64,000 nucleotides of DNA, taken from NCBI GenBank assembly GCA_964016885.1, contig OZ024746.1, positions 2,542,001-2,606,000 of the forward strand, written 5' to 3'. A program made the position numbers and the translations under genes. The notes under the pieces were generated by a model. The model saw only the letters and a program-made list of their open reading frames with translations, did no database searches and was not told the origin of the DNA. Source of the DNA: Eledone cirrhosa (Eukaryota). Each line of letters opens with the position of its first letter. Position 1 is the stretch's first letter. Positions 4,106-45,091 of this stretch are shown here, in pieces.

Positions 4106-4156
4106 ATGCAAATGAGATTAATCACCTCATTTACACAGACGAGAAAAGTATATATT
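4106..4156 (+). promoter_or_regulatory. Octamer (ATGCAAAT) plus TATA-like AAAGTATATATT upstream of a hammerhead
   Basis: The same motifs, order and spacing recur on the minus strand at 45091-45042 in a different element. Confidence 0.45.
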
Positions 4157-4195
4157 CTCGCCTGTCTTCTAGTCCAGCAGTCGTAAGCGGTGGGA

Positions 4196-4248
4196 GGGAC
4201 CGTCCTGACGAAGGCCAGTTAAGCCTGAAAGGCATAGATGGTTGTCCC
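4196..4248 (+). ncRNA. Minimal type I hammerhead ribozyme motif
   Basis: Stem I CCGTC/GATGG extended by GGGA/TCCC, CUGACGA (4205-4211), stem II AGGC-cagttaa-GCCT, GAAA, ggca, UA. The stem III loop is one change from the palindrome ATGCAT. Confidence 0.75.
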
Positions 4249-4361
4249 CCTTGCTTCTGCTGGACATCGCCAGAGGGCGTTAGCCCCCCCCCCCCCCGGT
4301 GTTTGCATAGCTACGGCTTCCTAAAACCGTATTTGTTTGGAGATACGAAATATTTATACAT

Positions 4362-4393
<32 letters not shown>

Positions 4394-5621
4394 ATCTTTA
4401 ATTTGGTCCACTGTTATGGAGGTACCTCCAGACGGCAGCAGGTCTCTGGCATTTGCAACCTCTGTCTGAGACCCCCAAGATGCTCAGTGGTGGAATAAAT
4501 ATAATCAATCACAGGGCAGATTTCTTTGGTGCATGTCGATACCTAAGGATGGGAACTTTCCTCAAGCTATATGGATAGCAACCCTACCACACCGAGTCCC
4601 AGAGACACCAACCCTGCCTGCTGCACTTATCTCTTCTCTCTTCTTGTCTCGATTAGCATCTAAAAATACCCCAGAGCCACACTAACTTAGCAGTTAGGCC
4701 CATGTCTTACTTCACCTTGGATTTCCCTTCTTTCTCACTTCCTTAGTTCTAATCCAAGTATCAAACCACTAGCTATTTAGTGAGATAATATACCTTGGCA
4801 GAATCTAATCCTGGGTATCTACATACACCCCACATTTCTGCTCACTGGGCTACAACATCTACCATCAGTCTGTAATTCGGTTTTCCTAACGACAAACTAC
4901 CTCCTTTCACACATAAAAATCAATACAAATTGTGATAAATAATTAGGACATACCTGTTATGTCTATTCTCACCCTTCTAAAGGGTACATATGTGTCTATG
5001 TATATACGTATGTGTGTGTATATATGTGTATGTATATGTATAAAAATGTGTGTATATGTGTGTTTGTGTGGGTATGCGTGTATCTGGATACGTGTGTGTG
5101 CTGGTATGTATTATATGTTTACAATATGGATTAAAATTTCAACACCTATAATTATAATTTTAACACCTTTTATTATGAGGACTTCATGTTGATAAGCATA
5201 GACATTCCCAAATGAACCCATATCTAGTTACATACATGAACTTTTCACTAACAACTCCAATCAGGAGTAGTAGTAACATATTAACACTATGGCCATCAAT
5301 GTCAGCTAGGTCACCTAGACCAAAACACCCCAATATTCTGGGTATATACAGTGATTATAGTTGGTTGTTAAAAACAACCCTATCAAACTGACTTGTTTCC
5401 AAGACAACTGACCTAAGAAATTTAATGAACTTGGTACTGGAATAAATCTGACCAATGGGAAAGAGGTAGATTCTACTGAATTTGTTCATTCTAAATCATA
5501 TGCCACCAGTGTTTTGAGAAAACAACACCATACTCCAGCACTGGGCATATCAAAAGATCGAAATAACAGAGGTAAACCTTGTTCCATCATTGTTTTTCTG
5601 TTTTTTTCTGTTCAAATTCTA

Positions 5622-5680
5622 GCTGTCTGATGAGGTCATGGCTGTTCCATAATGGTTATCACCGAAATATATATAACAGC
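5622..5680 (+). ncRNA. Type I hammerhead ribozyme motif, followed by AATAAA and (TA)n
   Basis: Stem I GCTGT/ACAGC, CUGAUGA (5627-5633), 13-bp stem II with G-U pairs and one mismatch, GAAA (5664-5667), palindromic ATATATAT stem III, AUA triplet. Confidence 0.8.
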
Positions 5681-5747
5681 GAATATGAATAAATGAAGTT
5701 AATTTTAATCCGTTGACATACTTCTTGTTTATATATATATATATATA

Positions 5748-5942
5748 ACAAAGGAAGTGTGGTAAGGAACCAGGTGGACCATAATGCACCAGAGTACTCT
5801 ATACTATGGGGAGTAGAGTGGGTAATAGGAAAAGAGTCAGAACCCCGACGGCAGAGCTCAAGCCGTTTCAACAGCTATTTCTGGACTAGACATAGCTGTC
5901 AAAACGGCTTGAGCTCTGCCGTCGGGGTTCTGACTATTTTCC

Positions 5943-5944
<2 letters not shown>
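5748..5944. mobile_element. Dispersed repeat (probable Penelope-like tail) ending in a ~57-bp-arm hairpin, flanked by (TA)n
   Basis: Arms 5826-5882 and 5888-5944. Related copies at 13435-13620 (also a hairpin), 37535-37700 and about 28090-28190. Confidence 0.7.
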
Positions 5945-5973
<29 letters not shown>

Positions 5974-6027
5974 ATAATAATAAATGCGAAGACTAAAATC
6001 CAAAGAGGGCTCGATAGGGATAAATAT

Positions 6028-6880
6028 AGAACGGGATGGAAAAAGTTCAGAGAGTTTATACCACTATTGGCCGCTAAAGGGTTCTCTCTAAAAATGAATA
6101 CGAACAGCAATGTTACATGGCAGTGAGACTTGGGCATTGTGTGCAGAGGATATATGCAGACTGGAGAGAAACGAAGCTTGCATGCTACGCTGGATGTGTA
6201 ATAGTAATATACGTGAACGGCAAAGCATAAATGAATTAAGGGAGAAATTAGGAATAAGAGGAATCAGATGTTGTTTACTCGAGAGAAGACTACGTTGGTA
6301 CAGTCATGTGATGCGCATGAAAGACGATAGCTGTATAAAAAGGTGCAGGGCGATAAAAATAGACGGTAGACACGGAGTAGGCAGACCCAGAAAAACCTGG
6401 GACGACTTGATAAATTCCGACCTCACACACTTACACCTCTCTAAGACAATGTCACTGGACCGAGATCTTTGGCGCTACACAGTAATACAGAAGACCCGCC
6501 TTGCCTAAGTACAAAGCGAAACCTACAGTCAGTAGGCACCTCTAACAAAAATACACCCTCATCTTACCATCCCCACCCCATCCACACCACTCCTTTCAAT
6601 GTAAAGTTATGTTGGTACCACAACATCCAGTCCGAAACAAATGAGGTCGTGTAGGTGTCACGACAAAAAAACACACAGTCCTCGCTGTAATGTGGCCGTG
6701 TAGGTAACACGGTAAAAACCTCCCAGTCCACACTGTAAATGTGGTTGGTGTTAGGAAGGGCATCCAGCCATAGAAAACCCGCCAGACAGTCCTATGCGAG
6801 CAGGATAACCAATCTTGCCTCAAGTGGGAAAATTCCTGTCCAAACCCATGCACGCGTGGAAGATGATCGTTAAATGATGA
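6028..6880 (+). mobile_element. RTE-clade LINE 3' fragment, long-3'UTR subfamily
   Basis: [10 protein letters not shown]...LRWYSHVMRM...GRPRKTW. Colinear with 24195-25055 including the 3'UTR, with a small deletion near 6098 and a (TGA)n tail. Confidence 0.92.
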
Positions 6881-7427
6881 TACACACACACACACACACA
6901 CACACATACATGTATTGTCACATACTGTGTTATGGTGAATTTCCCCCCAAATGCCATTAAGAATAAACATGTCTGTGGAGTGACAAGCCACATACACATT
7001 AATTTCATGAACAGTTCATTCCATTAATCGACCAACTGAAATGACCATCATTGGAACTGATGGAGATTCTATATACAACATCTTCCATGTTTCCATGGGT
7101 TAGATAAGTGAAGATGGAGACAAGTCAGATCAGGTGACCAGGTCTTGCTCATAAGGATCTGTTTTGGGCTTTGTTTCCTAACACTAACACTAACCATGTT
7201 ACAGCATGGACTAAGTACTTTATACATATATAGTGGAAATGAAAAAAATCATCGGTGTATATTTGAAAAATGATAAAAATGATATCCATGCTTGTATGGA
7301 AAACAGACGTTAAACGATGATGATGATACTTCTGATGATTCTTATAATTTTTCGAATATGTGTGTGTGTGTGTGTTGTGTACATAGGGAGAATGCAGTGA
7401 CTCCATAAGGAGGTCATATTCCTGTCA

Positions 7428-7680
7428 AGACAAAAAGCACTCAGACCCCTTGTAAGATGATAGTGCTGGTACCATGACAAAAAACCCCAGTCCCGGCTGG
7501 AAAGTGGTTGTCTTTAGGAAGGGCATCCAACCATAGAAATCCAAGTGAAACAAGGTGTGTATGAGCATGACGTGGTCACCTGACTTGTTTAGCCTGATAA
7601 GTGACAGCCTGTATTAAATAGACTGTCACTTTATGAGGCTATGTGAGGATGGAAAATAGATGGTACACAGTGATGATGAT

Positions 7681-7682
<2 letters not shown>
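7428..7682 (+). mobile_element. Decayed SINE sharing the GTGGTTGGYGTTAGGAAGGGCATCC core and RTE-type tail
   Basis: Matches the 3'UTR segment of the long RTE subfamily. Related minus-strand copies at 27120-27282 and 33038-33335. Confidence 0.6.
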
Positions 7683-7737
<55 letters not shown>

Positions 7738-8520
7738 ATATAGGGTGGTAAGTCCAAAACAATAAGAATGTTAAAAGACAACATACAAAGTCAATATGGA
7801 AAGAATACAGTTTGACGATAAACCGATAGATATATGGACAGATGCATATACACACACACATGTCTGTGTGTGTGTGTGTGTGCACGCGCACATGTGACTA
7901 AATATAATAATCTATGTTTGATTATTGGGTTTGAGTGAAAATCCAATTCCTTAGACGCTGGCCAAGGGATTTTCTATTAATTTCTATAATCAATTTCCAT
8001 CAAATCACCTTTCAAATTTGACCTAACACTTTTCTGCTTGATCTCTAGTGGACATTGTTCTGACATTTGCCTCTAACATCTCACATATGTTAATAATAAT
8101 GTAGGAACATGACCTTGCTGATTTCCATGCTCTCATCTCTGTTTCTGTTGTGCTAGGAAAGAATGTTGCATCTATAATTGATTGTTACATGAAATAGTGT
8201 TGATGTGCATTCGTGTGCGTACACATTTCTCTTCTCACATGTCTACATAAATACATATTTGCATAAATTTTCATAAATGTTTATACATAAACATATGCAT
8301 TTCTGTGTGTATATGTGTATATATATATATATGTGTATTGTAAGCGTGTATGTGTATGTATGTATGTGTATGTATGTATGTGTATGGTAAGTGTGTATAG
8401 GTATGTGTATGTATATATGTGTATTGCAAGCGTGTGCAAGAGAAAGTGTATATATATATAAACACACATACATGTGTATGTTTGTGGATATACTTCATGT
8501 GTGTCTATGAGTATGTACAG

Positions 8521-8622
8521 GGAAGAAATTATAAGTGAAACTGTTGTCAATGATGCTTTCAACATTAAGTCATCAGTGGAAACAATGACACCAAAAATTG
8601 TTAGAACTCTCATGAGATGGAG
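8521..8622 (+). other. Weak candidate exon (EEIISETVVNDAFNIKSSVETMTPKIVRTLMRW)
   Basis: TACAG| 102 nt open frame |GTGAGA, symmetric phase. Poor polypyrimidine tract and no recognised homology. Confidence 0.2.
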
Positions 8623-8744
8623 GTGAGATGAGTTACTGAGTGTGAAGCAATTACTTGTTTCCGGCTTTATCACATGGCAGCTTAGAATTTGGTAAATTCT
8701 GTTACACTGAAACAGAATCAACTTTAAATACTTCACAGAAATTT

Positions 8745-9670
8745 GTTCTCTGTCTCCATGTACACTGTCTCTCATGTACACTGTCTCACTGTCTCCATGT
8801 ACACTGTCTCTCATGTACACTGTCTCACTGTCTCCATGTACACTGTCTCTCATGTACACTGTCTCACATGTACACTGTCTCACTGCCTCTCATGTACACT
8901 GTCTCATGTACACTGTCTCACTGCCTCTCATGTACACTGCCTCTCATGTACACTGTCTCACTGCCTCTCATGTACACTGTCTCATGTACACTGCCACTCA
9001 TGTACACTGTCACTCATGTACACTGTCACTCATGTACACTGTCACTCATGTACACTGTCTCACTGTCTCTCATGTACACTGTCTCTCATGTTCACTGTCT
9101 CTCATGTACATTGTCTCTCATGTACACTGTCTCTCATGTACACTGTCACTCATGTTCACTGTCACTCATGTTCACTGTCTCACTGTCTCATGTACACTGC
9201 CTCACTGTCTCCATGTACACTGTCTCTCGTGTACACTGTCTCACTGTCTCTCATGTACACTGTCTCTCATTACACTGTCTCTCATTACACTGTCTCTCAT
9301 TACACTGTCTCACTGTCTCTCATATTCACTGTCTCACTATCTCTCATGTACACTGTCTCTCATGTACACTGTCTCTCATGTACACTGTCTCACTGTCTCA
9401 TGTACACTGTCTCATGTACACTGTCTCATGTACACTGTCTCATGTACACTGTCTCATGTACACTGTCTCACAAGTACACTATCTCTCATGTTCTCATGTA
9501 CACTGCCTCTCATGTACACTGCCTCTCATGTACACTGCCTCTCATGTACACTGTCTCATGTACACTGTCTCATGTACACTGTCTCTCACGTACACTGCCT
9601 CTCATGTACACTGTCTCATGTACACTGTCTCACTGCCTCTCATCTACACTGTCTCTCACGTACACTGTCC
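8745..9670. repeat. Minisatellite based on CATGTACACTGTCT(CT) with CACTGTCT sub-repeats
   Basis: Direct tandem repeat of 14-16 bp units and variants. Source of the His/Cys-rich ORFs in all three frames. Confidence 0.95.
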
Positions 9671-9902
9671 TCCAGAAGTGACAACAACAACTGTTTCTCA
9701 CAGCTACAAGGCCAGAAATCTGAGAAATGGATTAGTTGATTAAATGAAGGCCAGTACTTGACTGGTATTTTATTGTATGACCCTCAGTACTTGACTGGTA
9801 TTTTATTGTATGACCCTCAGAAGGATGAAAGTCAATCTTGATGGGATTTAAATTCAGATCACAAAGAACCACAACTGAATACTGAAAAATATATACAGGA
9901 AA

Positions 9903-10110
9903 CTGACTGGCCAGTCTGCTGATATGCAAATCTGACTGATCAGCCAGTCTGCTAATATGCAAATCTGGCTGATCAGTGGATCTGCTAATATGCAAATCTG
10001 ACTGATCAGCCAGTCTGCTAATATGCAAATCTGGCTGATCAGTGGATCTGCTAATATGCATATCTGACTGATCAGCCAGTCTGCTAATATGCAAATCAGA
10101 CCGATCAGTC
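9903..10110. repeat. 33-bp minisatellite, 6 units, each carrying an octamer motif
   Basis: ATGCAAAT at 9924, 9957, 9990, 10023 and 10089, and ATGCATAT at 10056. Confidence 0.9.
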
Positions 10111-10712
10111 ACTGTGTATTTTTGAAAATAGCATATATTTTCACTAGCTCTGACAGTTTGGCAGGTGAACAGTGAGCTGTACTGATAAAGGGTGATACCC
10201 AGAAACATTTCTTTTTGCAGTTCTTTTTTACATGCCAACACAAGAGCAAGAATGAAGAGTTCATTCTACTGACATGGCTATAAAAATGAGGCTCGTTTGT
10301 TTAATTGCAAACGAATCGAATGTTATTATTAATATTCGAAAAACTCAGATTACATTTATTGTATTCAGCCATGTAGAGCGAAAATTTTGTTTTTATTAGA
10401 AAAATATATTAACTTACACTCTTACTATTCCAGATAGTTTCTAACAAACACAAAGTCACAAATATTTGGTAATGAGTCTTGCCAATTAAATTGATCTCCA
10501 ATACTTGTGCATATTTCATTGACATCTGAAACGTCAACTTCATTCTAATGAATCATAACCATTCTATGTTTAAATTGTACTAACATTCACTTAGTCTTTT
10601 ATACTTTCCACAAATTTCACCTTAGAGGAATTTTAACTCAGAATGGTTATAATGGTTACATTGGCACAAGTCCTCAAATGTGATGGGTGTGAAGAGGGGA
10701 GATGAAGATATA

Positions 10713-11191
10713 TTCTTGGGTACCAAACAATAGGGGGTGAAGGTGGAATAAGCGGGGGGGGGGGGTAAGCAAGGGGGATAAGCCAGGGCGGGGGATAAGC
10801 CAGGGCGGGGGGTAAGCCGGGGGGGGGGGACACAAGTGAGGGGGTTGATTGGAAAATTGGTAATTTTTGTAGGTTGTCTCTTGATTTTATAAAAACCAGA
10901 ATTAATCATTTAGTTTACATATTGAGACCCCAGCCCATCCTATTTATTTTATAACATATGGGATTTCTAGTAATGTAATTTATTTGTCATGTATGTTTTT
11001 TAATGTATAAAGAAAATTAATTGTTGCAAGAATGCTACTACTTAAAATAAAATTTCGCTGGAGATAGATTAGAAAAATTTAATTAGTGGGGGTGTTGGAA
11101 TAAGAGTGAGAGATGGGGTGGTGGAAAAATCTGAAAAATTAATAAGTGATGGGTGGGGGGTGGGGGATGACGATTATTTGAGACCCAAGAG
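10713..11191 (+). mobile_element. Tc1/mariner-like MITE, copy 2, with an internal G-rich expansion
   Basis: TA|TTCTTGGGTACCAAACAAT ... ATTATTTGAGACCCAAGAG. Body homologous to 697-1072. Confidence 0.75.
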
Positions 11192-12284
11192 TGAGTAATC
11201 TATTAAATTAATTCCAGTATTGAAATATTTATTTTATCAACTTCAAAAAGATGGCAGTGCCCCAACATGGCCACAGCCTGTCGGTAGGAACCCATAATGG
11301 AGTAATAGAGTTGTTGTTACTGCTGTTGTTGTTTAGACACAAGTCCACCCTAATTGAGCAGGCCTATGATGAAAAGCATATAAATTATTTAGAAGGGTAC
11401 ATGTTATCCAATACACCCTTCTCTTATTCAAGACAATATAGTGTGATTTGGAGAGAAATTTTACAGCTATTTCTAGCAAGTCAACGACCACCTAAAAGAT
11501 AGATCCCACATTAACTCATGAGAAGCCAAGTGGTATTTGAAATCAGAATCTGTAAAGACAAAATGCCACAAGACATATTGTCTGCTCTACCAATATTGTT
11601 ATTCTTTACTCTCATGTGATGTTTTACAATTTCAACACAAAACCACATATTTTAGAGAGGAAAAGAGGAAAATCTTAAACACTGTGTCCAGTAGAGCTAT
11701 AGGCCAGACATTTCAATTATGTCCTTGTTTTTGCATTCTTCCATATCAGCACTACCACTCCTTGGTTCAATGAACTGAGAATTCTCTGCTACCAATTGCA
11801 ATAGATAGCTGGTAGCACATTGGCAAACACATGTCGCATATGAACATAAAGGGGCAGACCATCCAAACAAGATGATTTACCCCTCATACACAAGGCCGTT
11901 CATATTTCCACCACAGTTATCAGCCTTTTGCTGTTGAGAGTTGCAGTAGGCTGTCAAGGTAGGAACTACAATCCACTACTATCTCAGTCCATCAAATGGC
12001 TTTCATTCCATTGTGTGTCAAAGCACATGCCTTAGCTCTGATAATGCAACCTTCATGTTTTGCATTGAAGAAATGATCCAAGGCCATTCTTGCAACCAGC
12101 ACATTGGTTGCAACTCCACTTTTAATTACCTTTTCTTATTCAATTACTAATTCTCCACCTCTTCTAGCTTTTCCTATTCCTAATTCTTTGCTAAAAGCTA
12201 TTGATTCTAATCTAATTACTCTTTTATGAGTATAACACCACTGATTGTTGACAACTGTCCCTGTCAACTAATGAACTAAAATCC

Positions 12285-12400
12285 TTATCTCACTCTGAAG
12301 GCTTTACACACCAGTAACAATATGTTTAGGTTCCAGTAGCCAGGTCCCTGTCTAAGTGTTCTATTGAGGTTGACCATGCAGATCACAAATTTGTGGTGTG
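12285..12400 (-). pseudogene. Very old CR1/L2-like LINE 3' remnant
   Basis: Translation NILLLVCKAF resembles the C-terminal KILLLVYKAL motif of L2/CR1 ORF2. Confidence 0.3.
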
Positions 12401-12565
12401 GGTAGGCAATCATTTTTAATTTTGGATACTTTACACTATCTTTTTTTTTTTCTCTGGGAGAAATCAACTGTGTTCAGATATGGAGTGAGAATGGGCTCTG
12501 TCAGGTTTGAGCAGGGGTCATGAACATTGCAATCAGGAGCTACAAGTCTCCCTCTATCTATCTAT

Positions 12566-12578
<13 letters not shown>

Positions 12579-12597
<19 letters not shown>

Positions 12598-13206
12598 TTT
12601 TACGTCCGCTTTTCCCTGCTTTCAAGGGTTGGATGGGTCCTATTCAGCACAGCATCTCTCCACTTGTCACGGTCCTTCGTCATCTTCTTGGTGAGTTTCA
12701 GTGATCTGAGGTCTGCTCTCACCACCTCCGCGCATGTGTTTTGTGGTCTACCTCTAGTGCGTCTTCCCTCCACTGGGACTTCCTGGCACTTCTTCACCCC
12801 TCGGTCATCCTCCATGCGCATCACATGTCCATACCATCTCAGCCTTCTCGCCTGCATACCACAACTTATCCCTCTTATACCCAGTTTCTCTCTCAACTCA
12901 TCTATGCTTGGTCATTTATGCACATCCAACGGAGCATGCTTGCTTTATTTCTCTCCAACTGTCGCATATCTTCTGCAGTTGCTGCCCATGTCTCACTACC
13001 ATGCAGCATCGCGCACCTCACACAAGCATTATATAACCGTCCTTTCGTACGCAGGGAGAAACCCTTCTTTGTCAACAGAGGAAGCAGCTCCCTAAACTTC
13101 TTCCAGCTCGTCCTTATTCTAGATACTATGGCCTCGGAACAGCCTCCTCCCATGCTAATCTGATCACCTAGGTACCGGAAGCTATCAACCACTTCTATAG
13201 AATCCA
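12579..13206 (-). mobile_element. RTE-clade LINE 3' fragment, short-3'UTR subfamily, frameshifted
   Basis: [12 protein letters not shown]...MLHGSETW...[10 protein letters not shown]...KWRDAVL, with a (TGA)n tail. Confidence 0.92.
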
Positions 13207-13434
13207 ATGAGTATCACAGCGATTACTACTGCCAACTTTCCCTGTACATCTACTGCATATATATATTGGAAAATGTGTGAGATCTTTGGTACAGTTAGGT
13301 ATATTTGAAAAAAAGGATCAAGATCTACAAACTCATAATATTATATTATAAACTTAAATCAAATTATTTAGAACTACAAGTGAAGTCATTCTTTTCCTTT
13401 TTTTCAAATATATATATATATATATTTGTATATA

Positions 13435-13620
13435 AATCAGGATGGATTCAGTAAGCAACTGGTCAAACCATTACTCTCCAAAGTACTCAATACTTGGGGT
13501 AGTAGCATATGGTTATATGAAAAAAACCAGGACCCTGATGGCTGAGCTCTTGCCATTTCAACAGTTGGTTCCAGAGTAAAATGGCAAGAGCTCAGCTGTT
13601 GGGGTCCTGACTCATTCATA
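13435..13620. mobile_element. Second fold-back copy of the 5748-5944 family
   Basis: Arms about 13517-13558 and 13579-13620. Shares AGTACTC.ATACT.GGG..AGTAG with the first copy. Confidence 0.65.
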
Positions 13621-14505: not shown

Positions 14506-14554
14506 ATATTAGAATCAGTGAAATAGTGGGGCAAAATACCTTGCAGACAAAGGA

Positions 14555-14739: not shown

Positions 14740-14899
14740 GTATTTAATGACATTTCTTTATATTCTCAATTCAATTCTGCTGGGATTTATAAAATAACCA
14801 TTAAACCTTTTGTTTCTGTATTTCTAATGAAACACACTGACTATTATTTGCAAATATATTTGCTGGTGGAATTTAATGAAATAACTTTCTCGCTATTAA

Positions 14900-23630: not shown

Positions 23631-25055
23631 AGCGTAAAAGTTGGCGTCCATCAGGGTTCTGTTCTCAGCCCCCTACTATTTATTATTGCCCTTCAGGCTA
23701 TAACAGAGGAGTTCAAGACAGGCTGCCCATGGGAACTCCTATACGCAGACGACCTGACACTCATAGCGGAATCAATGGCCGAGCTAGAGAAGAAATTCCA
23801 AACATGGAAGCACGGCCTAGAGTCAAAAGGACTTAAAATTAACCTGGCTAAGACCAAAGTTCTAGTTTGTAGGAAAGAAAACAAGGCGGCGGTCCCTTCT
23901 GGGAAATGGTCGTGCTCGGTGTGTAGGAAAGGCGTAGGTAGAAACTCCATTTTATGTCCTAAATGCAAAGTATGGGTGCATAAAAGATGTAGTGGGATCA
24001 CAGGTAAGCTAACTAAGAACATAGATTTTACATGTGGCCGGTGTTCTGGTGCAATAAGTAGCAGCAAGTGCCCACAAAATACTAGCTCTTTCAATTGCGC
24101 AGAGGGTTCTATAGAAATAGTGGACAGCTTCCGTTACCTGGGCGATAAAATCAGCAGTGGGGGAGGGTGCTCTGAAAGTACTGTAGCTAGAGTCAGAACT
24201 GGTTGGAAAAAGTTCAGAGAACTTATACCACTATTAGCTGCTAAAGGGTTCTCCCTAAAAATGAAAGGCAGGTTGTACGATGCCTGCATACGAACAGCAA
24301 TGTTGCATGGCAGTGAGACCTGGGCATTGTGTGCAGAGGATATACGCAGACTAGAGAGGAACGAAGCTTGCATGCTCCGCTGGATGTGTAACAGTAATAT
24401 ACGTGAACGGCAAAGCATAAACGAACTAAGGAAAAAATTAGAGATAAGAGGGATCAGATGTTGTTTACTCGAGAGAAGGCTACGTTGGTATGGACACGTG
24501 ATGCGCATGAAAGACGATAGCTGTATAACAAAGTGCAGGGCAATAAAGATAGACGGTAGCCACGGAATAGGCAGACCTAGAAAAACCTGGGACGGGCTGA
24601 TAAACTCCGACCTCACACACTTACACCTCTCCAAGACAATGTCACTGGACCGAGGCCTTTGGCGGTACTCAGTAACAGAGAAGACCCGCCTTGCCAATAG
24701 GCATCTCTAACAAAATACACCCCGTCCCGCCACCACCCCCACCCATCCACACCACCCCGTCCTATGTAAAGTTATGTTGGTGCCGCGCCATCCAGGCCGA
24801 AACAAATGAGATCGTGTAGGTGTCACGACAAAAAAACACACAGTCCACGCTGTAATGTGGCCTTGTAGGCAACACGGTAAAAACCTCCCAGACCCACACT
24901 GTAAATGTGGTTGGTGTTAGGAAGGGCATCCAACTGTAGAAAACCTGCCAGACAGTCCTATGCGAGCAAGACAATCACTCTTGCCTCAAGTGGGACTACC
25001 CCCGTCCAAACCCATGCAAGCGTGGAACACGGACGTTAAACGTTGATGATGATGA
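23631..25055 (+). mobile_element. 5'-truncated RTE-clade LINE (long-3'UTR subfamily) with an uninterrupted ORF 23631-24710
   Basis: [18 protein letters not shown] (RT catalytic motif), Cys/His finger CSVC...CPKC..WVHKRC...[19 protein letters not shown], and a (TGA)n tail. Inserted in a (TA)n tract. Confidence 0.95.
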
Positions 25056-26865: not shown

Positions 26866-27112
26866 AATGGAAAAGAATGAAACGAAATTTCATTTCTCAC
26901 TCTTAGTACGGCTGATACTTAAATGTAAGTATGTATACGTACATACATATATGTATACAAACGTACAGTAGTATGTATATATATATATCTACATACATGC
27001 ACACATATATATATATATGTACATATGGGTTTACCGAACATTTATGATAATGTTCGGGCTGTTTGTAAACAAACAGCCCGAATTACGCCGTACAGTGTTC
27101 GGCAACCATAAT
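26866..27112 (-). mobile_element. Truncated copy of the 44700-45456 hammerhead element (3' part only)
   Basis: Reverse-complement match to 45222-45456. Abuts (TA)n. Confidence 0.8.
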
Positions 27113-28225: not shown

Positions 28226-29515
28226 TAAGTTAAAACAATGAAATAAAAAATCAAGTCATTAGAGATATACTTCACTGCATTACGATCGTTTCTAGGTGAT
28301 GATAATACATTGTAGCTATACTCAGTTATTGATCTATGTAAGGTTAGTTACAAAATATCAGATAAAGAGAATATTTAATTACATGCATATCACCAGCTGT
28401 TTTCAAAAGCAATAATAATTTTATTCAATAATAATTTTATTCAGAATTAGTAGTATGTTAGTATCATGTCCTTATTTGGAGGTCGTTGAAGAACTAACGA
28501 ATCAAATTGTTTTTTTCATATGGTGTTAAGATGAAAAGTAATTTACTTTAGTTGAGGTCATGACCCTTTGAAAGGAATGGTTGAAGGGTGTTCATAGTAG
28601 AATTGGCTTAAAAATCTATTAGGAGGAAAGGGATTGTCAAACTGATAGTTGAATGTATCTGGTATAGTGAATTTAAAAGGAATGTCAAAATAAATGGTGA
28701 TTAGTGTTGTATTGAGTTTTAAGGTGAATATAAATTAAGGTTATGGCTAGGAAAGATAGTATATTAAAAGATGAAAATTATAATAAGATAATGAAATACA
28801 GTAATGTGATAATATACAACTTAACCAACACAATATAGTACTGTGTGGTAAATTGCATTTAGTATAATATAGCATATGATACACTCTAAAATACTATCAA
28901 GTATGTTTATGCATAAATAATCAAACTCAGATAAATACATGTTGGCATAGTTAAAACACATAAATTTCATAGATTACAATTCCTGTATCACAATGGATAA
29001 ACAATATTTGGGTACCTCGTTGAAGAATATTCCAATTCCACCTAAAGATGAATATCTAATCTTACTCATACAAAAAACTAACCAATTTATTAGGAGAATG
29101 AGATGGAGGGCCTACCATTTTGACAACAAAACTAATACAAATGAAATGAAGTACCGCTATGGATTCAAAACATACAAAAATCCTCCTCATAATATTCAAC
29201 TGGAACATTTTGAGAGCGCCCTACTGAACATGATTAAAAACAAAGTTCAGAAAACACAAATCAGAATTCCAAAAGGGATTGGATTCTACCCTTCTACAAC
29301 TGAAAAATTCAAACAAGGTCCATGTCCATTCTGACAAAACTGGTAACTTGTACCATATGGATATCGATAAATATAACCAGTTCATATATAAAGAACTTAG
29401 AAAGAACTATAAGAAAGCAAATACCACCGCACTGACATCCCTGAACAACATATCATGTGATATAGTAAAACAGGTCCAGATTGGAGATAGGACTGAGCCT
29501 TTCACGCCTAAAACA
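28220..29515 (+). mobile_element. Penelope-like retroelement 5' portion: inverted pLTR upstream of the ORF start
   Basis: Degenerate minus-strand hammerhead at 28272-28415 (GAAA-cgatcg-UA) beside (TA)n, followed by the ORF N-terminus. Confidence 0.65.
28993..29515 (+). pseudogene. Penelope-like element ORF N-terminus, with a frameshift near 29241
   Basis: SLKNIPIP...LIQK..QFIRRMRWRAYHF...YGFK...PP...FE..LL.MIKN / KFR..KSEFQ...V.SDKTGNLY...YKK. The DKT motif is characteristic of PLE N-termini. It resembles the Naiad type (from memory, unverified). Confidence 0.75.
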
Positions 29516-36300: not shown

Positions 36301-36415
36301 AGGCTGAAATGGGATTCCTCTGAAGGGTCTTTGGAGTAACGTTACCTGGTAGAGTGTGTAGCTTGGAGATGAGAGAGTCACTCCAGGTAGAGTCACTACT
36401 TCTCTGATATGTATG

Positions 36416-36446
<31 letters not shown>

Positions 36447-37069
36447 GAATGTACGTACATATGCACATTCATAAATACATACATACATACATGTATGAAT
36501 GTATGTATGTATGAGATAACAGTGACGGAGGCAGATTGAAAATTATGAAAGTGAAGGAAAACTCAGAGATTCAACTGTCTTCCCATAGAATTATTGCTTA
36601 TATGCTGTAGTTGGGCCTTAAACTGAAGGTTGAGTTATTGAGTGGAGGATTCCTTAGTTCACCTCAAGGATTGTTATTTAGCTCTAGATCAATACATTAT
36701 CTAATATGGCCATCCATATTTAAGACATTCAAGAATGATTTGAGGGAACTTTGTTTGCTACTTTTAGCAGCTTGATTGGCTATGTAGAGGGTTCCTCGTT
36801 AGCTCATCTAAAAGAAGAGTCACATGATGGCTTCTTTATATCTGTTTCTGCATAACACCAGCAAAACTGCAGTAAATTATAACTAAACCCTGTCATAACT
36901 AATTCTGTCTTAGACTACAACACTATTAAAATATTAACTGCATTGAATAAGTTCTGAGAATATTATCGGTGTTAGGAGTATGTATTGATTGTAATATATC
37001 ACTGAGATGTTGAGATTAATTCTATCTTCACACAAAAATATAAAGTATTATCATTATTATCTCCTCTTT

Positions 37070-37256
37070 GGCGGTGGATTGGCAGTATCGGTAGAGGTTC
37101 GGACGCCATGCTTTGCAGCATAGAGTTACGGCCCTTTATGATCTGAGTTCAAATCTCGCCAAGGTTAACTTTGCCTTTCATCCTTACGGCGTCGATAAAA
37201 TAAAGTACCAGTAATACACTGGGTAATTGCTGGCCTTGTGCCAAAAGTAGAAACAA
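37070..37256 (+). mobile_element. tRNA-derived SINE (young family)
   Basis: GGCGGTGGATTGGCAGTATCGG...GAGTTCAAATC...GTAGAAACAA(TTA)n. Confidence 0.9.
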
Positions 37257-38014
37257 TTATTATGTGAATATCTTCATTTGTTATTATTTTGAATAATATT
37301 AAAACTCCAGGAATATTTTACTGTAGAGTGCTTTTAATCTATTGTAAAACTGTATTCATTGCGTAATCAATGAACCATATTAATCTTTGGTCATATATAT
37401 ATTGGCTGGTCTAGTGATGGGCTTTCTCATTTTTATATGTATTCAAATGCAACTTCGTCCCACCCTTGCAAGCAGGGAAGAGCGGACGTAAAACTGATGA
37501 TGATATATATGTATATATATATATATATATATACGAGATAGGGTGTGGTAAAAAACCAGGTGGACTATAATCCACAAGAGTACTCGATACTTGGGGTAGT
37601 AGAGTGGGTCTGGAATCTTTTCATTTATATATTGTTGGGATGCCATCTTGGACACTTTTAAACCTGGTGCAGGCCATCACTCTCCAGACCTGAACATAGC
37701 TGATTTCTTAGAGAGAGCGTGGAGATACAGAGAAAGAATCGACATCAATACTGGACTGGTTTTATATTTATCAACCTTGAAAGGATGAAAGGCAAAGCTG
37801 AGCTCAGAGTGAAGAGAATCAGAATGAATACAGTATAGCCAATTTGCTGCATATATATTTGAGAGAGGGTGAGAGAGAAGGGCGAGGGAGAGAGAGGGGG
37901 CGTGAGACATACACCCATAAATACATTCATGCATATAAATGCAGAAACACATTGACACAAATGCACACACACACAGAAAAATGGGCGTAAAAAATGATGA
38001 CGTCGGTGTGTGTG

Positions 38015-38137
38015 CATGTGTATACACACATACACACATATATATATATATATACACACACACATATATATATATATGTATACACACACACATATATATA
38101 TATATGTATACACACACACATATATATATATATGTAT

Positions 38138-38193
<56 letters not shown>

Positions 38194-38261
38194 ACACACA
38201 CACATATATATATATACATATGTATACACACACACATATATATATATATGTGTGTGTATAG

Positions 38262-38305
<44 letters not shown>

Positions 38306-38335
38306 ATACACACACACATATATATATATATATAG
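38015..38335. repeat. Compound (CA)n(TA)n microsatellite
   Basis: Direct observation. Confidence 0.95.
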
Positions 38336-38753
38336 ATGCATTGAAAGTAAGAAATCTCACCTACAATGATGGCTGAACATTCTCAAAAGTGATGTTAAGT
38401 TGGACAATAAATCTTAATATTTTGTGGATATTTAAACACATTTTAACAATTGATTTATAGAGCTAAACTGTAAGTTAGGTTCATAGTTAGGCATCTATAG
38501 ATTTTCTTAGATTGCTTCTATATGAACATTTTTTGTATTATCTCATGGAGAAAAATGATTCTTGACTTGTCTTTTCTTTTCTTTTCTATTGGAATATTAC
38601 ATGGAATAACAATCAGTTTACAACCATGACAGATTCCATTCTTTGCAACATCTCATATTTCCTAGACAAATTTCATATATTCTACCATTTAACAGTAAAT
38701 GGTTCTCCAAATAATGCATGCTAAATTATTTCTATTTTTATATTTCATTCTTC

Positions 38754-39597
38754 AAATGAGAAAACTGATCGCTAGAACAGCTGTTAAAACAGCTAGGTGC
38801 TGTCACCTTGTAGATTGTCTCTCTGTTGACCACTGGCTGCTGGCCTCTGTCCCCTGAGACATATTTCATCTACCCGTCACCCACCTTGTAGATTGTCTCT
38901 CTGTTGACCACTGGCTGCTGGCCTCTGTCCACTGAGGCATATTTCATCTACCTGTCCCCACCTTGTAGATTGTCTCTCTGTTGACCACTGGCTGCTGGTC
39001 TCTGTCCCCTGAGACATATCATCTACCTGTCCCACCTTGTAGATTGTCTCTGTTGACCACTGGCTGCTGGTCTCTGTCCCCTGAGACATATCATCTACCT
39101 GTCACCCACTTTGTGGATTGTCTCTCTGTTGACCACTGGCTGCTGGCCTCTGTCCCCTGAGACATATCATCTACCTGTCCCACCTTGTAGATTGTCTCTC
39201 TGTTGATCACTGGCTGCTGGCTTCTGAGACATATCATCTACCTGTCACCCACCTTGTGGATTGTCTCTCTGTTGACCACTGGCTGCTGGCCTCTGTCCTC
39301 TGAGACATATCTACCTGTCCCACCTTGTAGATTATCGCTCTGTTGACCACTGGCTGCTGGTCTCTGTCTTCTGAGACATATTTCATCTACCTGTCCCCAC
39401 CTTGTAGATTATCTCTCTGTTGAGCACTGGCTGCTGGTCTCTGTCCTCTGAGACATATCATTTACCTGTCACTCACCTTGTGGATTGTCTCTCTGTTGAC
39501 CACTGCTGTCTTTGCCCATTGCTGTCTTTGACAAGGAGAAGTGCACTGTTTCAACTAGCTGTTTTAATGGCTGTTCTAGTGATGATGTTTCTCATTT
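38754..39597. mobile_element. Inverted-repeat-bounded element containing a ~70-75-bp tandem array (about 10 units, 38803-39506)
   Basis: AAATGAGAAA...CTAGAACAGCTGTTAAAACAGCTAG (38754-38796) is inverted at 39555-39597. Confidence 0.7.
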
Positions 39598-41181
39598 TAT
39601 AAGTATTCAAATACTCTCACTTCATCTCGATCAGAGACAACATTGTTTTAACTTTATCCTATCTATGATTAACTTTCTATTTAGGACAGACACCACAGCT
39701 TGAAGTTCACTATCCCATTATTTTATTTTATTTGTTTTCTTTCATCCTTTCGTAGGAAAACATGCTTTTCACTGCATTAGTTCCCCACCCAAGAGTAGCG
39801 ATCAATAAAGTGGTAGCAAAAGAGAGAACCAATGGCCTCTCATAGAAAACTGCTGAATACTTCTTTTGTAGAAAGAAAAAGAGAGATCAACAAATGATGG
39901 GGAGTGCTACTTGAAATATTGGACATAGTAAGATGGTTAGTGCATCTGTAGACAGGATCTGGTTCTGGTTATTGGTGTAGAGTTATTATGAAGGTTATTG
40001 GTGTTGAGTTAGGACAAATACACATAGGCTTTTTTTTAATGGTTGACACAGACAGCATTCTTCTTTTCATTTATGTTTAAAATGAATTGCTTAGTTGTCC
40101 TTTTGAGTACTTGGTAGGGTATAGAGTATGATGGTTGAAATCCAAGCAGAGAGATTTGAACTATAGTTCCACCAGTTGGTGAAATAAATCATATGACCAC
40201 ATATAAATAATATATATTTTCGAAATGTTACTTGTAGTGACGGTACAGGACTAAATAATGTCCTTGATTAAGCAGTTTTTTTCTCAAGGGACAAGTTCTA
40301 TTTGTTCTACAATTACAGTTATTTTGGTTGTTTACTTGCTGGTTTGAAGGGTGTGTAGATGCCTGGTTGTTAGGAAGAGTATTAGGATAATGATGACTAT
40401 TATTCCTATTGCTATTAATATCATCATCATCATCATCATTTTACGTCCGCTTTTCCCTATGCGTATGTTCCTCATATGAAATCCAATATTTAGTTACATC
40501 TTATATGAAGAAAAATATATTACAATCCTTTGACCAGGTAATGTTTTTATATTCTTTATTTTTTCCAAAAGAAATCCTCTAATTTATCAGTAAGTATATA
40601 TATATATATATATTTATATATAGAAAGAGAGAGAGAAATTTGCTATTGAAGTGGATATATTTGTCCATTATAGAAAAAATGCTTTATTTAATCTCATCTC
40701 TGCATTTTTTAGTTGTGAAAACATTGAAAAATAGTCTTCAATATATCAATTTAGATAAAATATTATCAAATATCAGTTATCGCATACAAAAATTCATTTT
40801 AGCTATCAAATATTTCATTTATTGTAGAAATTCGCTTATTTAAATAATCATAATATGTATGGAATATTAAGTGTCTCTAAGGAAAATTATATTTCAACCA
40901 TTTATCCATTCCAATAATATTTTTTGTAATCAAATTTCTCCATTATTATAGCAAACAAAACGATTCCCAAACTTATCAGTTGATATGAAATGGTTTATTA
41001 AATATTAAATATCTCATAGAGCAATTTGTCTACACAAAAGAATATCTGTATAAAATATCTTTCTATTGTAAATCCCTGCACTTTCTGCTCATCTGCTGCC
41101 ATTATTCCCTTCTAACAGGACGAGGTGGATAGCAGAAAATAAGAAAAAAAGAAAATTTATTCTGAATTGAAGCGAACGGCA

Positions 41182-41706
41182 GTTGTTACTATTTTGAGTG
41201 TGGTGGAGGTGGTGTTACTACTATTTTGAGTGTGGTGGTGGTGGTACTACTATTTTGAGTGTGGTGGTGGTGTTACTACTGTTTTGAGTGTGGTGGTGGT
41301 GGTGGTACTACTATTTTGAGTGTGGTGGAGGTGGTGTTACTACTGTTTTGAGTGTGGTGGTGGTGGTGTTACTACTGTTTTGAGTGTGGTGGTGGTGGTG
41401 GTGTTACTACTGTTTTGAGTGTGGTGGTGGTGTTACTATATTGAGTGTGGTGGTGGTGGTGGTGTTACTACTATTTTGAGTGTGGTGGTGGTGGTGTTAC
41501 TACTGTTTTGAGTGTGGTGGTGGTGTTACTATATTGAGTGTGGTGGTGGTGGTGTTACTACTATTTTGAGTGTGGTGGTGGTGGTGTTACTACTATTTTG
41601 AGTGTGGTGGTGGTGGTGTTACTACTGTTTTGAGTGTGGTGGTGGTGTTACTATATTGAGTGTGGTGGTGGTGGTGGTGTTACTACTATTTTGAGTGTGG
41701 TGGTGT
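41182..41706. repeat. ~30-36-bp minisatellite GTTACTACTRTTTTGAGTGT(GGT)n
   Basis: Direct tandem repeat, about 16 units. Confidence 0.95.
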
Positions 41707-41841
41707 TTTGCACCTGATTAACCCTTCATGAAAGTGTTGATCTTCAGTTGGTCTTCGATGAACATTTTGTTGTTTGATCAACTAAACATCCTGTTCATTA
41801 AAGTGATTTGCTTTAATTTTATACCTACATAATTCCACTTA

Positions 41842-42135
41842 CTCCCAGGTCCCAAACAATAGGGGGATTGGAATAAGCAGGGTATGGGGGTGATAAATCG
41901 ATAATCTTTCTAGGTTGTTTCTGTTGATTTAAAAAAACCCCAGAATTAGTCAGTTTACGTATTGAGACCCTAACCCATCCTATTTATGTTATAACATATG
42001 GGATTTCTAGTAATGTATTTTTTTGTCATGTATAATGTTTTTAATGTCTAAAGAAAATTAATTGTTGCAGGAATGCTACCACTTAAAACAAAATTTCGCT
42101 GGAGATAGATTAGAAAAATTTAATAAGTTAGGGAG
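41842..42135 (+). mobile_element. Tc1/mariner-like MITE, copy 3, truncated at the right end
   Basis: TA|CTCCCAGGTCCCAAACAATAGG start. Body matches 10713-11090. Confidence 0.7.
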
Positions 42136-42816
42136 TAGAAACATGAATCAAGCTGGGATTATGGTAAAATACACTTGCCTAAGTGGAACCAAACCCAGAA
42201 CTTTATGACTAAAACAAACTTCATAACCACTCCGTCATTCTGACCAAGTAGATATATGATCAAACACTATTTCAACCATGACAATCCCATCAGTCTTTTC
42301 AGAGTTTTGTGTAGTTGAATAACATTTTTTCTTTAATAAAGTGTGATTTGAAGGACATTTAGTTGCTATTTCTAGCAGGTTGAACAATGGAAGGATGGAT
42401 CTCTTGATAGCTTATTAGTCTTGGTGTTATTGTCATTCCAAAAAAGTCTCATTTCATTCAGTTTGATGTTGGAGACTGATACACTTTAGATGAAACTCAA
42501 GTTATAAAGATATTAGATGTCCAGTAAAAAAGTTTCAGCTAATTTATACATTCAGAGTTCTAGCCATTGTCATTCCATTTTTATTGTCTGTCAGAAATTA
42601 AAAATGTTTTCTAAACTTTAAAAAAATTTGGAGTCCACTGCTTAACTTAAGTTTCATTGTGTTGATCTCCCGACAGGTCACTTGTCTATGGCTGATAACA
42701 TTCACAGAGAAAAATGCCTTGGTCATAGATACACAGATTGCTACATATAAATACCAAATTTGAATAACTTGTTGGCACCCTATTGATTTGGGCAAGTGTA
42801 CTCTCATATTTCATAT

Positions 42817-43001
42817 TTGTTTCTACTTTAGGCACAAGGCCAGCAATTACCCAGTGCATTACTGGTACTTTATTTTATCGACCCCGTAAGGATGAAAGGC
42901 AAAGTCAACCTCGGCGGGATTTGAACTCAGATCGTAAAGGGACGTAACTATGCTGGAAAGCATGGCGTCCGACCCTCTACCGATACTGCCAATCCACCGC
43001 C
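42817..43001 (-). mobile_element. tRNA-derived SINE with a 12-bp TSD
   Basis: TSD ATATTTCATATT (42806-42817 and 43005-43016). Confidence 0.92.
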
Positions 43002-43270
43002 CTTATATTTCATATTAAAACAGAGAATGTCTTTGTCTGTGCAATCACTAAAACTCGAGAACCACCCAACCGATTGTTTTCAAACTTTACACATGTAATA
43101 CCTATGGTCCTGTGAGTGTTTTGAGCAAAATGTATTTCAAATTTTCAATGCCCTAGGGACCGCATTAGGCGATCTCTTTCTCTCTTAGTCTTTCTCTTTT
43201 TAGATAGCTACAACGTTGCGCCCTTATAATATCTGTCTGTATGCCTGGCTGTCTGCATTGCGTTATTATG

Positions 43271-43353
<83 letters not shown>

Positions 43354-43837
43354 CAATCTATAAAGCTCAGTGTGTGGTCATGCTCCTTTCTTATAGAAAT
43401 CTACGATATAGAATTTCTTCAATTGAAATTTACAATTCAGTATTCGAAATAGCTTCGATTGCGTCTTGGCACAGATAATCTTTTCAATTTCACCCACAAT
43501 TACGCAAAAAATAGATAAAACTCAATATTTTACGATTTTTCTCTGTCATTTAAACTGCTAAACTCTTTCCACTACCATTCAAAATCTATACAACCTCATA
43601 CTTTCTGCTACTTTCTCTTTCCAAGCTTGATGGTGATACTGTCCGTTTTACTCTCTCATATCATCTGCTATCCTCTAACTACAACCCACACATTTTGCTA
43701 CTTTCTCTTTTATCCAGATACATTTATTCAACAACAAGCGATAAATCTTTTTTAAAACCTTTTCCAAACGCATACAAACACACACTCACTTCAACAACAA
43801 CAACAACAACAATCTGCCTTTTATAGATAATAAACAA

Positions 43838-44193
43838 TATCCTCTATGAGGTCACTAAACCTGCTAGAAACAGCAGCTAACTCTCCCCCATACCCCCCCC
43901 CCAATGTCTTAAATTTAGAAAACATATCTTCTATGAGGTCACTAAAGCTGCTAGAAACAGCAGCTAACTCTCCCCCATATCACACCCATCCCTACTGTCT
44001 TAAATTTAGAAAACATATCCTCTATGAGGTTACTAAACCTGCTAGAAACAGCATCTAACTCTCCCCCATATCACACCACTCCCTACTGTCTTAAATTTAG
44101 AAAACATCCTCTATGAGGTCACTAAACCTGCTAGAAACAACAGCTAACTCTCCCTCATATCACAACCCTCCCTACTGTCTTAAATTTAGAAAA
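43838..44193. repeat. ~87-90-bp tandem array, 4 units, derived from a dispersed repeat
   Basis: The unit CTGCTAGAAACAGCAGCTAACTCTCCCCCATATCACACC matches dispersed copies near 2350, 11445-11480, 30700, 36735 and 42340-42380. Confidence 0.85.
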
Positions 44194-44950
44194 CACACAG
44201 ACAACCATGCAGAACAACTCCATCGCAGCTCTGTTGTTCGGCTGGCATCGTCTACGCGCGTGTTGCGCAAGTACTGTGAAACAATAAATTTCAACACTTT
44301 TTTGCACAGAGATAATATCCATAGGCGAAACTACAATTGTCACTGCTGGCGAAGCTCCTGCTTCCAGGTCTGCAATTCATTCACCCAGTGCCTGGCAGAC
44401 AAAAAAGTGCTGCCATAAAATGGGTGGTGCAACCTAACTTTGGTAACTTAATGACCCCGAGCAACGCCGGGCTTTAATGCTAGTATATTATATATATATT
44501 GTTATGCTTTGGGAGGGTCATGTTGCCAATAAGAAACACACGCACCTGTTACTTTCACCCCAATTTATTATAAATTAAATTTATAAATTTCCGGTTGGCT
44601 GGTTGGTTGGTTGGTTCCATAACCGGACGGTTGTTCATATATTGTCAAAGTTCTTTCATCACACATTCTGTGACCTCTTCAGTGACTGGGGATTCTTTTC
44701 AGAAACGAAATATATATATATATATATATATGTGTAATATAAGTATGTATACGTACATACATATATGTATACAGACGTACAGTAGTATGTATATATATAT
44801 ATATACATACATGCACACATATATATATGTACGTACGGATTCACCGAACATTTATTATAATGCTCGGTGTGTTTGTAAACAAACATCCCGAAATAAGCCG
44901 TACAGTGTCTCGCAACCATCGTTGCTCATTTGTTCAACACCGACAAATGA

Positions 44951-44993
44951 ACGCTGTACTAGTTTCAAGCTTATTAGCTATCGTCAGCAACGT
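44951..44993 (-). ncRNA. Minimal type I hammerhead ribozyme motif
   Basis: Minus strand ACGTTG CUGACGA t-AGCT-aata-AGCT-t GAAA ctag UA CAGCGT. 6-bp stem I, palindromic ACTAGT stem III, GUA triplet. Confidence 0.85.
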
Positions 44994-45041
44994 ATACCTT
45001 CCTGCCAGATGGTTGAATGTCTGAAAGTATATATGTCTGAA

Positions 45042-45091
45042 AATATATACTTTCCTTATGCATATTAACGCCTGAGCAGCCTAATTTGCAT
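45042..45091 (-). promoter_or_regulatory. Octamer (ATGCAAAT) plus TATA-like AAAGTATATATT upstream of a hammerhead
   Basis: Same architecture as 4106-4156. Confidence 0.45.

Follow-up and report, generated by a model that had tools for sequence, protein, structure and literature searches.

Analysis of a 64,000-nucleotide (nt) stretch of the Eledone cirrhosa genome (assembly GCA_964016885.1, contig OZ024746.1, positions 2,542,001 to 2,606,000 of the forward strand; the whole stretch is hereafter the window) revealed two elements in which an octamer and a TATA box precede a hammerhead ribozyme. Both sites are almost certainly copies of two families, A and B, of non-coding hammerhead repeats that belong to the retrozymes without long terminal repeats (non-LTR retrozymes). 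We hold with moderate confidence that these are retrozymes with a captured promoter of the small nuclear RNA (snRNA) type, a block of octamer, YCA and TATA from which transcription would start about 55 nt ahead of the ribozyme cut. Judged by its letters, the block itself likely acts as a promoter and, if it does, A and B would probably be transcribed by RNA polymerase II (Pol II).

The promoter-like block at the two sites

A sequence-only reading of this DNA had described the octamer, a TATA word and the core CTGACGA at one site on each strand, and the motifs, their order, spacing and strands were confirmed at both. On the plus strand ATGCAAAT (4106-4113) is followed after 31 nt by AAAGTATATATT (4145-4156) and after a further 48 nt by CTGACGA at 4205; on the minus strand ATGCAAAT (45091-45084) is followed after 30 nt by AAAGTATATATT (45053-45042) and after 54 nt by CTGACGA at 44987. 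The octamer-TATA pattern has these 2 matches in the window and none in 100 shuffles. Our own descriptor completes type I hammerhead folds around both cores, with 7 and 6 pairs in stem I, and positions 4170-4270 fold at z -3.6. The ribozyme of element 2, taken as an isolated 81-nt stretch, folds no better than shuffles (z +0.8), and an Rfam scan of the window returned no hammerhead among the matches listed (150 of 153), these being microsatellite-driven microRNA matches. The features are as follows.

3907..4368, plus strand: element 1 (family A), the complete insertion flanked by (TA)n tracts, with its main arm at 4066-4368 (+) and its inverted 5' arm at 3907-4065 (-)
4068..4073, plus strand: T6 run on the sense strand, 5' of the octamer; potential RNA polymerase III (Pol III) stop within the repeat unit
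4105..4116, plus strand: octamer block TATGCAAATGAG, identical over all 12 letters to the blocks that precede the host RNase MRP gene and U6 locus L031
4122..4124, plus strand: YCA at octamer+16; with +1 at 4179 it falls where host Pol II snRNA genes have their proximal element, with a weak wider match in family A
4149..4154, plus strand: TATA box of element 1, 43 nt past the octamer start
4179, plus strand: predicted transcription start, the A of CA at TATA+30, placed by analogy with host genes, which start at TATA+30
4198..4243, plus strand: type I hammerhead of element 1; core 4205, stem II 4212-4226, predicted cut after 4236
44745..45456, minus strand: element 2 (family B), consisting of a main arm at 45153-44745 (-) and a tailed inverted arm at 45153-45456 (+); each arm ends in (TA)n
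45081..45092, minus strand: octamer block TATGCAAATTAG, matching the one that precedes host U6 locus L032
45073..45075, minus strand: YCA(G) at octamer+16 of element 2
45028..45049, minus strand: TATA box (45049-45044, 42 nt past the octamer start) and a second copy (45033-45028) from a 16-nt local duplication
45003, minus strand: predicted start at the position typical of the family (A of CA); in the window copy it lies 30 nt from the duplicated TATA
44951..44993, minus strand: type I hammerhead of element 2; core 44987, stem II with U-U at its base, loop III the palindrome CTAG, cut predicted after 44957
45155..45191, plus strand: second hammerhead core, in the inverted arm of element 2, severed from the promoter and most of stem I
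9895..10390, plus strand: third, decayed cassette copy (family H), ends approximate

The 12-letter TATA word is identical at the two sites, as had been remarked, but partly by luck: most B copies read AAAGTATATACT, the column behind which has its commonest letter in 77% of 92 family B copies, and the word truly common to both families is AAAGTATATA. Likewise, the similar gaps of 48 and 54 nt are as described, but the 54 nt of the second site stem from the local duplication, which also accounts for its octamer-to-core distance of 104 nt against 88 nt in 52 of 58 B copies; in family A this distance is 99 nt in 13 of 15. A start downstream of TATA had been proposed too and is supported at the level of sequence by a pyrimidine-A pair 30 nt after TATA in both families, with A at the predicted position in 14 of 15 family A copies and in 54 of 58 family B copies. 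Loop III reads GGCA in the window copy of family A and the palindromic TGCA elsewhere in that family. The decayed family H copy holds five octamers and one variant at 33-nt spacing (9924-10096), followed by TCAGT at 10105, a damaged TATA near 10133 and a mutated core, CTGATAA, at 10182.

As a separate observation, TATA forms the middle of a short palindrome whose flanks are particular to each family (window 4140-4161 and 45053-45036; L095, L096), AAAG-TATATA-CTTT in B and GAAAA-TATATA-TTTTC in H.

Non-coding units with a Penelope-like footprint

Elsewhere in the 3.0-Gb genome the same sequences occur as circularly permuted units that close on themselves without an open reading frame (ORF). Tandem units measure 456-502, 466 and 478-482 nt in arrays of B, 467 nt in I and 310 nt in K (11 units), and the family A unit is about 330-350 nt, with two cores 353 nt apart in L030. 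No ORF is present in the units of A, B, I and K, those of B, I and K being whole natural units, and the window frames over element 2 are microsatellite read-through only. One type I hammerhead is found per unit, matched by the descriptor with stems I-III in A, B, H, I and K; pair 3 of stem I in family B varies (T-G 36, G-T 32, A-T 24 of 99). As in other non-LTR retrozymes, the units are non-coding and show no LTR, primer-binding site or polypurine tract, no search having been aimed at the latter two. Short tandem units with a type I hammerhead characterize non-LTR retrozymes in the work of Cervera and de la Pena 2020 (PMC7229834) and of Li, Clavereau and Pollet 2026 (bioRxiv 10.64898/2026.07.22.740005).

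Head-to-head arms were observed in 17 of 40 B loci, in 14 of which the arms end at unit positions 354-377 and 410-428, and of 15 family A loci 10 include an inverted arm and 13 are flanked by TA or CA. The inverted arm of element 1 lacks a ribozyme and bears the longer 3' end, or tail. Penelope elements are recognised by a footprint of inverted arms and microsatellite targets, with an optional tail (PMC8557442) that arises from two internal starts of the reverse transcriptase (RT) (PMC11167929), and the window families were likely mobilised by Penelope-like elements. A candidate driver, and only a candidate, is an abundant RT plus GIY-YIG element with the same (TA)n ends, which adjoins B or I arrays in L097, L098 and L206; it has no Pfam match of its own, and its Atlas neighbours carry HTH_animal, GIY-YIG and RVT_1 on a share of their members. 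The alternative that the window elements are themselves autonomous Penelope-like elements, with an RT plus GIY-YIG ORF between pseudo-LTRs, was rejected, as the units close without an ORF.

Abundance of the cassette and conservation among families

The octamer-TATA-CUGAYGA pattern has 21,121 matches in the genome, compared with 23 for a reversed control, and these comprise at least seven families; by eye, about 83 of the first 100 listed of the 21,121 belong to family B. A strict octamer-TATA pattern gave 613 matches (control 3) and a variant pattern, which exposed further families, 472 (control 13). Three further cassette matches, with spacings of 58, 45 and 50, were left unassigned to a family.

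A sample independent of the octamer was assembled from 60 stretches and the window (664 kb), of which only the window itself had been chosen for an octamer. Our descriptor identified 54 ribozymes in it, and 2 in one shuffle; the 54 comprise 12 of families A, B, H and I, 11 of family K from a single array, 29 with a long stem II and 2 unclassified. An octamer stands upstream of 11 of the 12 ribozymes of families A, B, H and I (9 of 10 without the window copies), the background for a 21-nt slot being 1.7%; two of the octamers are displaced by deletions and one copy is truncated. The cassette marks a subset of the compact-ribozyme families.

The view that motifs and spacing, rather than uniform homology, are what is conserved stood up well. 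In an alignment of one natural copy from each of seven families, the columns identical in all seven were confined to the motifs (the octamer, A+9, CA+17/18, five TATA columns and six core columns), and the leaders aligned no better than shuffles. Neither A+9 nor CA+17/18 had been demanded by the search pattern. Alignments between the bodies of different families scored low, TA tracts having inflated their z-values, and speak neither for nor against common ancestry, and conservation of columns within family B is high everywhere and hence uninformative.

Likeness to host snRNA-type promoters

The free-standing POU promoter that the sequence-only reading had put forward was not borne out: the block resembles the snRNA-type promoter of the host genes for U6, U6atac and RNase MRP. 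Three separate host U6 promoters carry ATGC(A/T)AAT(T/G)AG at -76, -77 and -78, the third reading ATGCTAAT, with CCT 15 nt past the start of the octamer block and TATA at -30. The best U6atac locus has the octamer block with one mismatch at -77, and the single RNase MRP gene has TATGCAAATGAG at -77; across these Pol III type-3 genes TATA lies at -30 and the octamer-to-TATA distance is 46-48. The element block consists of the same 11-12 letters as in U6 and MRP, including an AG after the octamer that is common to both and was not selected for. No octamer was detected at -70 to -80 in 15 non-redundant U1/U2/U5 promoters or in U4. The proximal YCA(G) of these Pol II genes lies at -55 to -58 in all 15 and in U4, and 14 of the 15 have a TATA-like word near -30. 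With the type-3 and Pol II snRNA promoters of the host the elements share the octamer block, the proximal YCA or CCT and TATA at -30. The promoter count left out, as retrocopies with no promoter, U6 loci L044 and L045 with 12 further matches (mostly 5'-truncated) and five of six U6atac loci.

Some further observations concern the host genes themselves. A distal word, TTAYYTCCCTTG, is common to U1, U2 and U6 genes at about -250 to -285 (L031, L032, L071, L072, L075, L148), and AATTAAA occurs near -89 in U1/U2/U5. In a tandem U6 array, 6 of 16 fetched copies (L037, L038, L040-L043) have an insertion of about 190 nt between TATA and the gene. Tracts of (TA)n or (TG)n border several U6 retrocopies, and in L288:1390-1530 a U6atac retrocopy is joined head-to-head to a family H element, a junction that suggests a template switch by the same reverse transcriptase.

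Spacing divides the families into two classes. The octamer-to-TATA distance is 43 in A (15/15), 42 in B (58/58), 41 in I (7/7), 40 in H (3/5) and 39-43 in F (12/12); only G, with 47 in 13 of 15 copies, and two of four J copies have the host Pol III spacing of 46-48. YCA and TATA are 27 (A), 26 (B), 25 (I), 24 (H), 23-27 (F) and 27 (K) nt apart, as in host Pol II snRNA genes, and 31 nt apart in G and in two of four J copies, as in host U6 (31-33). Family K, with 11 tandem 310-nt units in L209:281-3381 (-), has CCAGT 27 nt before TATA, which is the layout of host U1/U2/U4/U5. A start-like CA is located at TATA+29/30 in A, B and H, at +30/31 in I and at +27 to +29 in 10 of 12 F copies, while 9 of 14 G copies have G at TATA+30, as U6 does. 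Scored with a 12-column profile of the host Pol II element, H falls in the top 0.35% of genome positions, B in the top 1.4%, K in the top 1.7% and F in the top 4.7%.

Because the distance from YCA to TATA in A and B equals that of U1/U2/U4/U5, and because their copies routinely extend through T5-T6 tracts and lack a 3' box, Pol II is the most likely polymerase for these two families. Between ribozyme and next promoter A carries a T6 run, I two T5 runs and B a run of T5 or longer in 47 of 92 copies. At up to one mismatch no 3' box was found in A, B or I and one was found in H; its absence from the former fits read-through. A distal element at about -260 was not found in A, B or I. In flies the distance from the proximal sequence element PSEA is 30-37 for the Pol II element PSEB and 34-41 for the TATA of Pol III genes (PMC1761439), and human type-3 promoters recruit Pol II too (PMC6023835).

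Alternative explanations

The best surviving alternative is that all families carry a Pol III type-3 (U6-like) promoter and that unit-length templates arise by leaky termination at T4-T6 runs. Among the host genes examined the proximal octamer block occurs only before Pol III genes (5 of 5 type-3, none of U1/U2/U4/U5), and family G combines the exact U6 spacing with G at +30. In addition, A and B copies have their longer 3' end at the T-run or no more than about 10 nt from it, and one young B array has a unit whose T-runs are all T4. Nevertheless, A, B, F, H and I are 3-8 nt shorter than the tight host spacing, and the routine passage through T-runs described above does not suit termination at them. 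Internal RT starts also explain the two 3' ends (PMC11167929). We regard this alternative as unlikely.

Less probable still is an ordinary Pol II promoter of mRNA type, composed of POU octamer, TATA and initiator, in which SNAPc would have no role and the likeness to U6 would reflect shared factors. The CA at TATA+28 to +31 also has the look of an initiator. The weak scores of A, G, I and J on the proximal-element profile and the multiplication of the octamer to five copies in the window copy of H would also agree with it. It sits poorly with the AG after the octamer that the elements share with the host and with a YCA fixed at octamer+16, 24-27 nt before TATA as in U1/U2/U4/U5. Family K, which has CCAGT and TATA and no octamer, and the exact U6 geometry of G speak in the same direction.

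Least probable is that octamer and TATA are conserved for a role in the RNA, as part of its structure or as a site bound by protein, with transcription from flanking promoters. In A, B, I and others the octamer does pair with an imperfect inverted partner, TATA lies within a palindrome in B, H and A, and whole circles fold strongly (z -8.0 in B, -4.9 in K), but the same words occur at like distances in untranscribed DNA before host U6, U6atac and MRP. Moreover, the local octamer hairpin folds better than shuffles in only two families, H (z -2.9) and I (-2.1), with A at -0.2, B at -0.9, F at +1.1, G at -0.7 and J at 0.0. From one family to another, and between B subfamilies, the partner arm changes both its side and its letters while the octamer stays constant, and no compensatory change touches it.

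Several observations weigh against a captured snRNA-type promoter, or narrow the support for it. An upstream octamer is not a general feature of hammerheads. The octamer is present in none of 11 family K ribozymes (one array) and, at -105 to -85, in none of 18 matches to Rfam Hammerhead_1, all of one family, L (L226-L243), a compact hammerhead with AT-rich upstream sequence and neither octamer nor TATA block. In the same interval, 29 long-stem-II ribozymes show 1 one-mismatch octamer, one of the 29 having only 27 nt upstream, and 2 unclassified short ribozymes have none. A rule that an octamer precedes all hammerheads is excluded by these four groups. Families F, G and J were recovered by requiring the octamer and are not independent cases; nor do the seven families amount to seven, since they may share ancestry and B and I are clearly sisters. 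Among the host genes, MRP is without the CCT seen at octamer+15/16 in U6 and U6atac, and the pairing of a Pol III-class octamer with Pol II-class short spacing, as in A, B, F, H and I, occurs in no host gene examined. On the host Pol II profile A, G, I and J are unremarkable (12-20%), so that the Pol II reading for family A relies on three letters and the spacing. It had been predicted that family G, with its Pol III spacing, would be free of T-runs; this failed, T5-T7 following soon after the ribozyme in 8 of 15 copies. The octamer is paired in predicted hairpins of every family (4-7 of its 8 letters), the predicted start falls at the end of an extended stem I, and pairing begins 5-7 nt upstream of that start; RNA structure could therefore hold those letters. 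Of 128 family B copy 5' ends, 1 lies at the predicted cut and none at the predicted start, with no pile-up, in a mapping biased by a sample chosen on intact cassettes and by an inner microsatellite that makes false ends at 240-280. Finally, no sequence link was shown between the terminal repeat of the candidate driver and A or B.

Proposed mechanism

Under the reading favoured here, SNAPc and TBP, probably joined by a POU protein, would assemble on the block and direct snRNA-type initiation at TATA+30, for A and B most likely by Pol II. The polymerase would read through the T-runs of the unit into the next tandem unit, and paired ribozymes would then cut with loss of the capped leader; a palindromic loop III permits such dimer-type cleavage (PMC4209133). 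The unit-length RNA thus released would hold the promoter of the next unit and could be circularised or left multimeric. A Penelope-like RT/GIY-YIG protein would nick (TA)n and copy the RNA from internal sites, so that new insertions would carry the promoter upstream of an intact ribozyme. As the copies do carry an intact ribozyme with an upstream promoter, the template was likely a circle or an uncut multimer rather than a linear cut monomer. Single insertions, as at both window sites, comprise one complete promoter-ribozyme unit that yields no cut-to-cut monomer alone, and they are probably dead ends or weakly active.

A further step is rather doubtful. An ancestral retrozyme may have captured a host U6/MRP promoter, and several lineages may then have switched polymerase through a shorter gap between proximal element and TATA (about half a helical turn) and a U1/U2-type YCAG core. 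G and J would have kept the Pol III geometry and A, B, F, H and I would have acquired the Pol II geometry, which would permit read-through of their own T-runs.

Relation to known systems

The cassette had not been recognised as a described module; this needs revision, a promoter ahead of a hammerhead being known for newt satellite 2 and for schistosome repeats. The newt promoter is said to include an octamer and a PSE, and the schistosome repeats reportedly have an A/B-box internal promoter. Newt satellite 2 is reported to be a hammerhead repeat whose internal promoter is of the snRNA type and serves Pol II (Coats, Zhang and Epstein, 1994, cited in PMC2220036). The present elements differ from it in that TATA is part of the block and the octamer lies 16 nt from YCA, in that the closest host match is the Pol III class (U6, U6atac, MRP), and in having two spacings among families. 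The SINE-like (short interspersed element-like) hammerhead repeats of schistosomes share the order of promoter and hammerhead but are apparently transcribed by Pol III; their promoter lies at the 3' end of the cut unit, so that tandem copies are needed (PMC6765202).

The metazoan non-LTR retrozymes of PMC7229834 and bioRxiv 10.64898/2026.07.22.740005 are alike in their short non-coding tandem units with one type I hammerhead each, in occurring as dispersed monomers and arrays, and in co-existing with Penelope-like elements. They differ in that RNA circles have been shown there and in that most copies of the present elements are head-to-head partial units in (TA)n. The accessible text of these two papers describes no internal retrozyme promoter, and in that of PMC7229834 the word 'promoter' appears twice, both times for T7 constructs. 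Pseudo-LTRs of Penelope-like elements (PMC4209133, PMC8557442, PMC11167929) share with the present elements a type I hammerhead with palindromic loop III, an inverted 5' arm, an optional tail, microsatellite targets and a promoter inside the repeat. The tail is about 45-60 nt here and 30-40 nt there, and the units of A, B, I and K have no ORF. Penelope-type long-stem-II ribozymes of this genome, unlike the present elements, lack the octamer.

No description of an octamer-YCA-TATA block in retrozymes was found in the literature searched, a body that excludes subscription papers, the 1994 newt paper and the supplement of PMC7229834 with its unit sequences from mussel, coral and axolotl, all of which could affect how new the block is. 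The element class is known; the present analysis adds the likeness to U6atac and MRP, a sample drawn without selection and the existence of two spacings.

Other repeats in the window

A near-perfect hairpin at 2750-2950 contains two inverted long-stem-II hammerheads of Penelope type (cores 2879 + and 2855 -) with no octamer in the usual slot, and two more long-stem-II hammerheads lie at 5627 (+) and 44682 (-). Longer copies of the 44682 family (L211, L197, L006) have GCGCATGCGC, CCGGATGT and AAAATGGCG upstream, words which we take to resemble NRF1, ETS and YY1 sites and which form a candidate promoter of a different, housekeeping type. Two near-identical C-terminal reverse transcriptase fragments of a long interspersed element (LINE), presumably RTE-like, occupy 6098-6508 and about 23640-24710 (+), the second adjoining a long (TA)-rich tract. 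A repeat of about 190 nt, probably a SINE, has four dispersed copies at 3315, 31607, 42808 and 55404. A short family B fragment, of the tail region only, is found at 26876-27019 (-). At 28951-29334 (+) a 127-amino-acid frame contains the motif SLKNIP...RRMRW, which presumably corresponds to the N-terminus of a Penelope-like ORF; Pfam gave no match for the frame 28951-29331.

Implications

As a by-product, the U6/MRP promoter of this animal has been defined, with an unusually proximal octamer, which is useful for the expression of guide RNA. For retrozymes, a candidate promoter is now named, with a start predicted to the base and two spacings that predict different polymerases. If the switch of polymerase were true, the families with Pol II geometry would include one that has expanded to tens of thousands of copies, and the genome would hold a natural series of conversions from Pol III to Pol II promoters in selfish RNA. 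If the blocks are active, the genome would offer POU proteins, SNAPc and TBP more than 20,000 dispersed octamer-TATA sites to which they could bind. Retrozymes are reported to show high expression in most tissues (PMC7229834), and a built-in promoter would explain the transcription of such protein-free elements.

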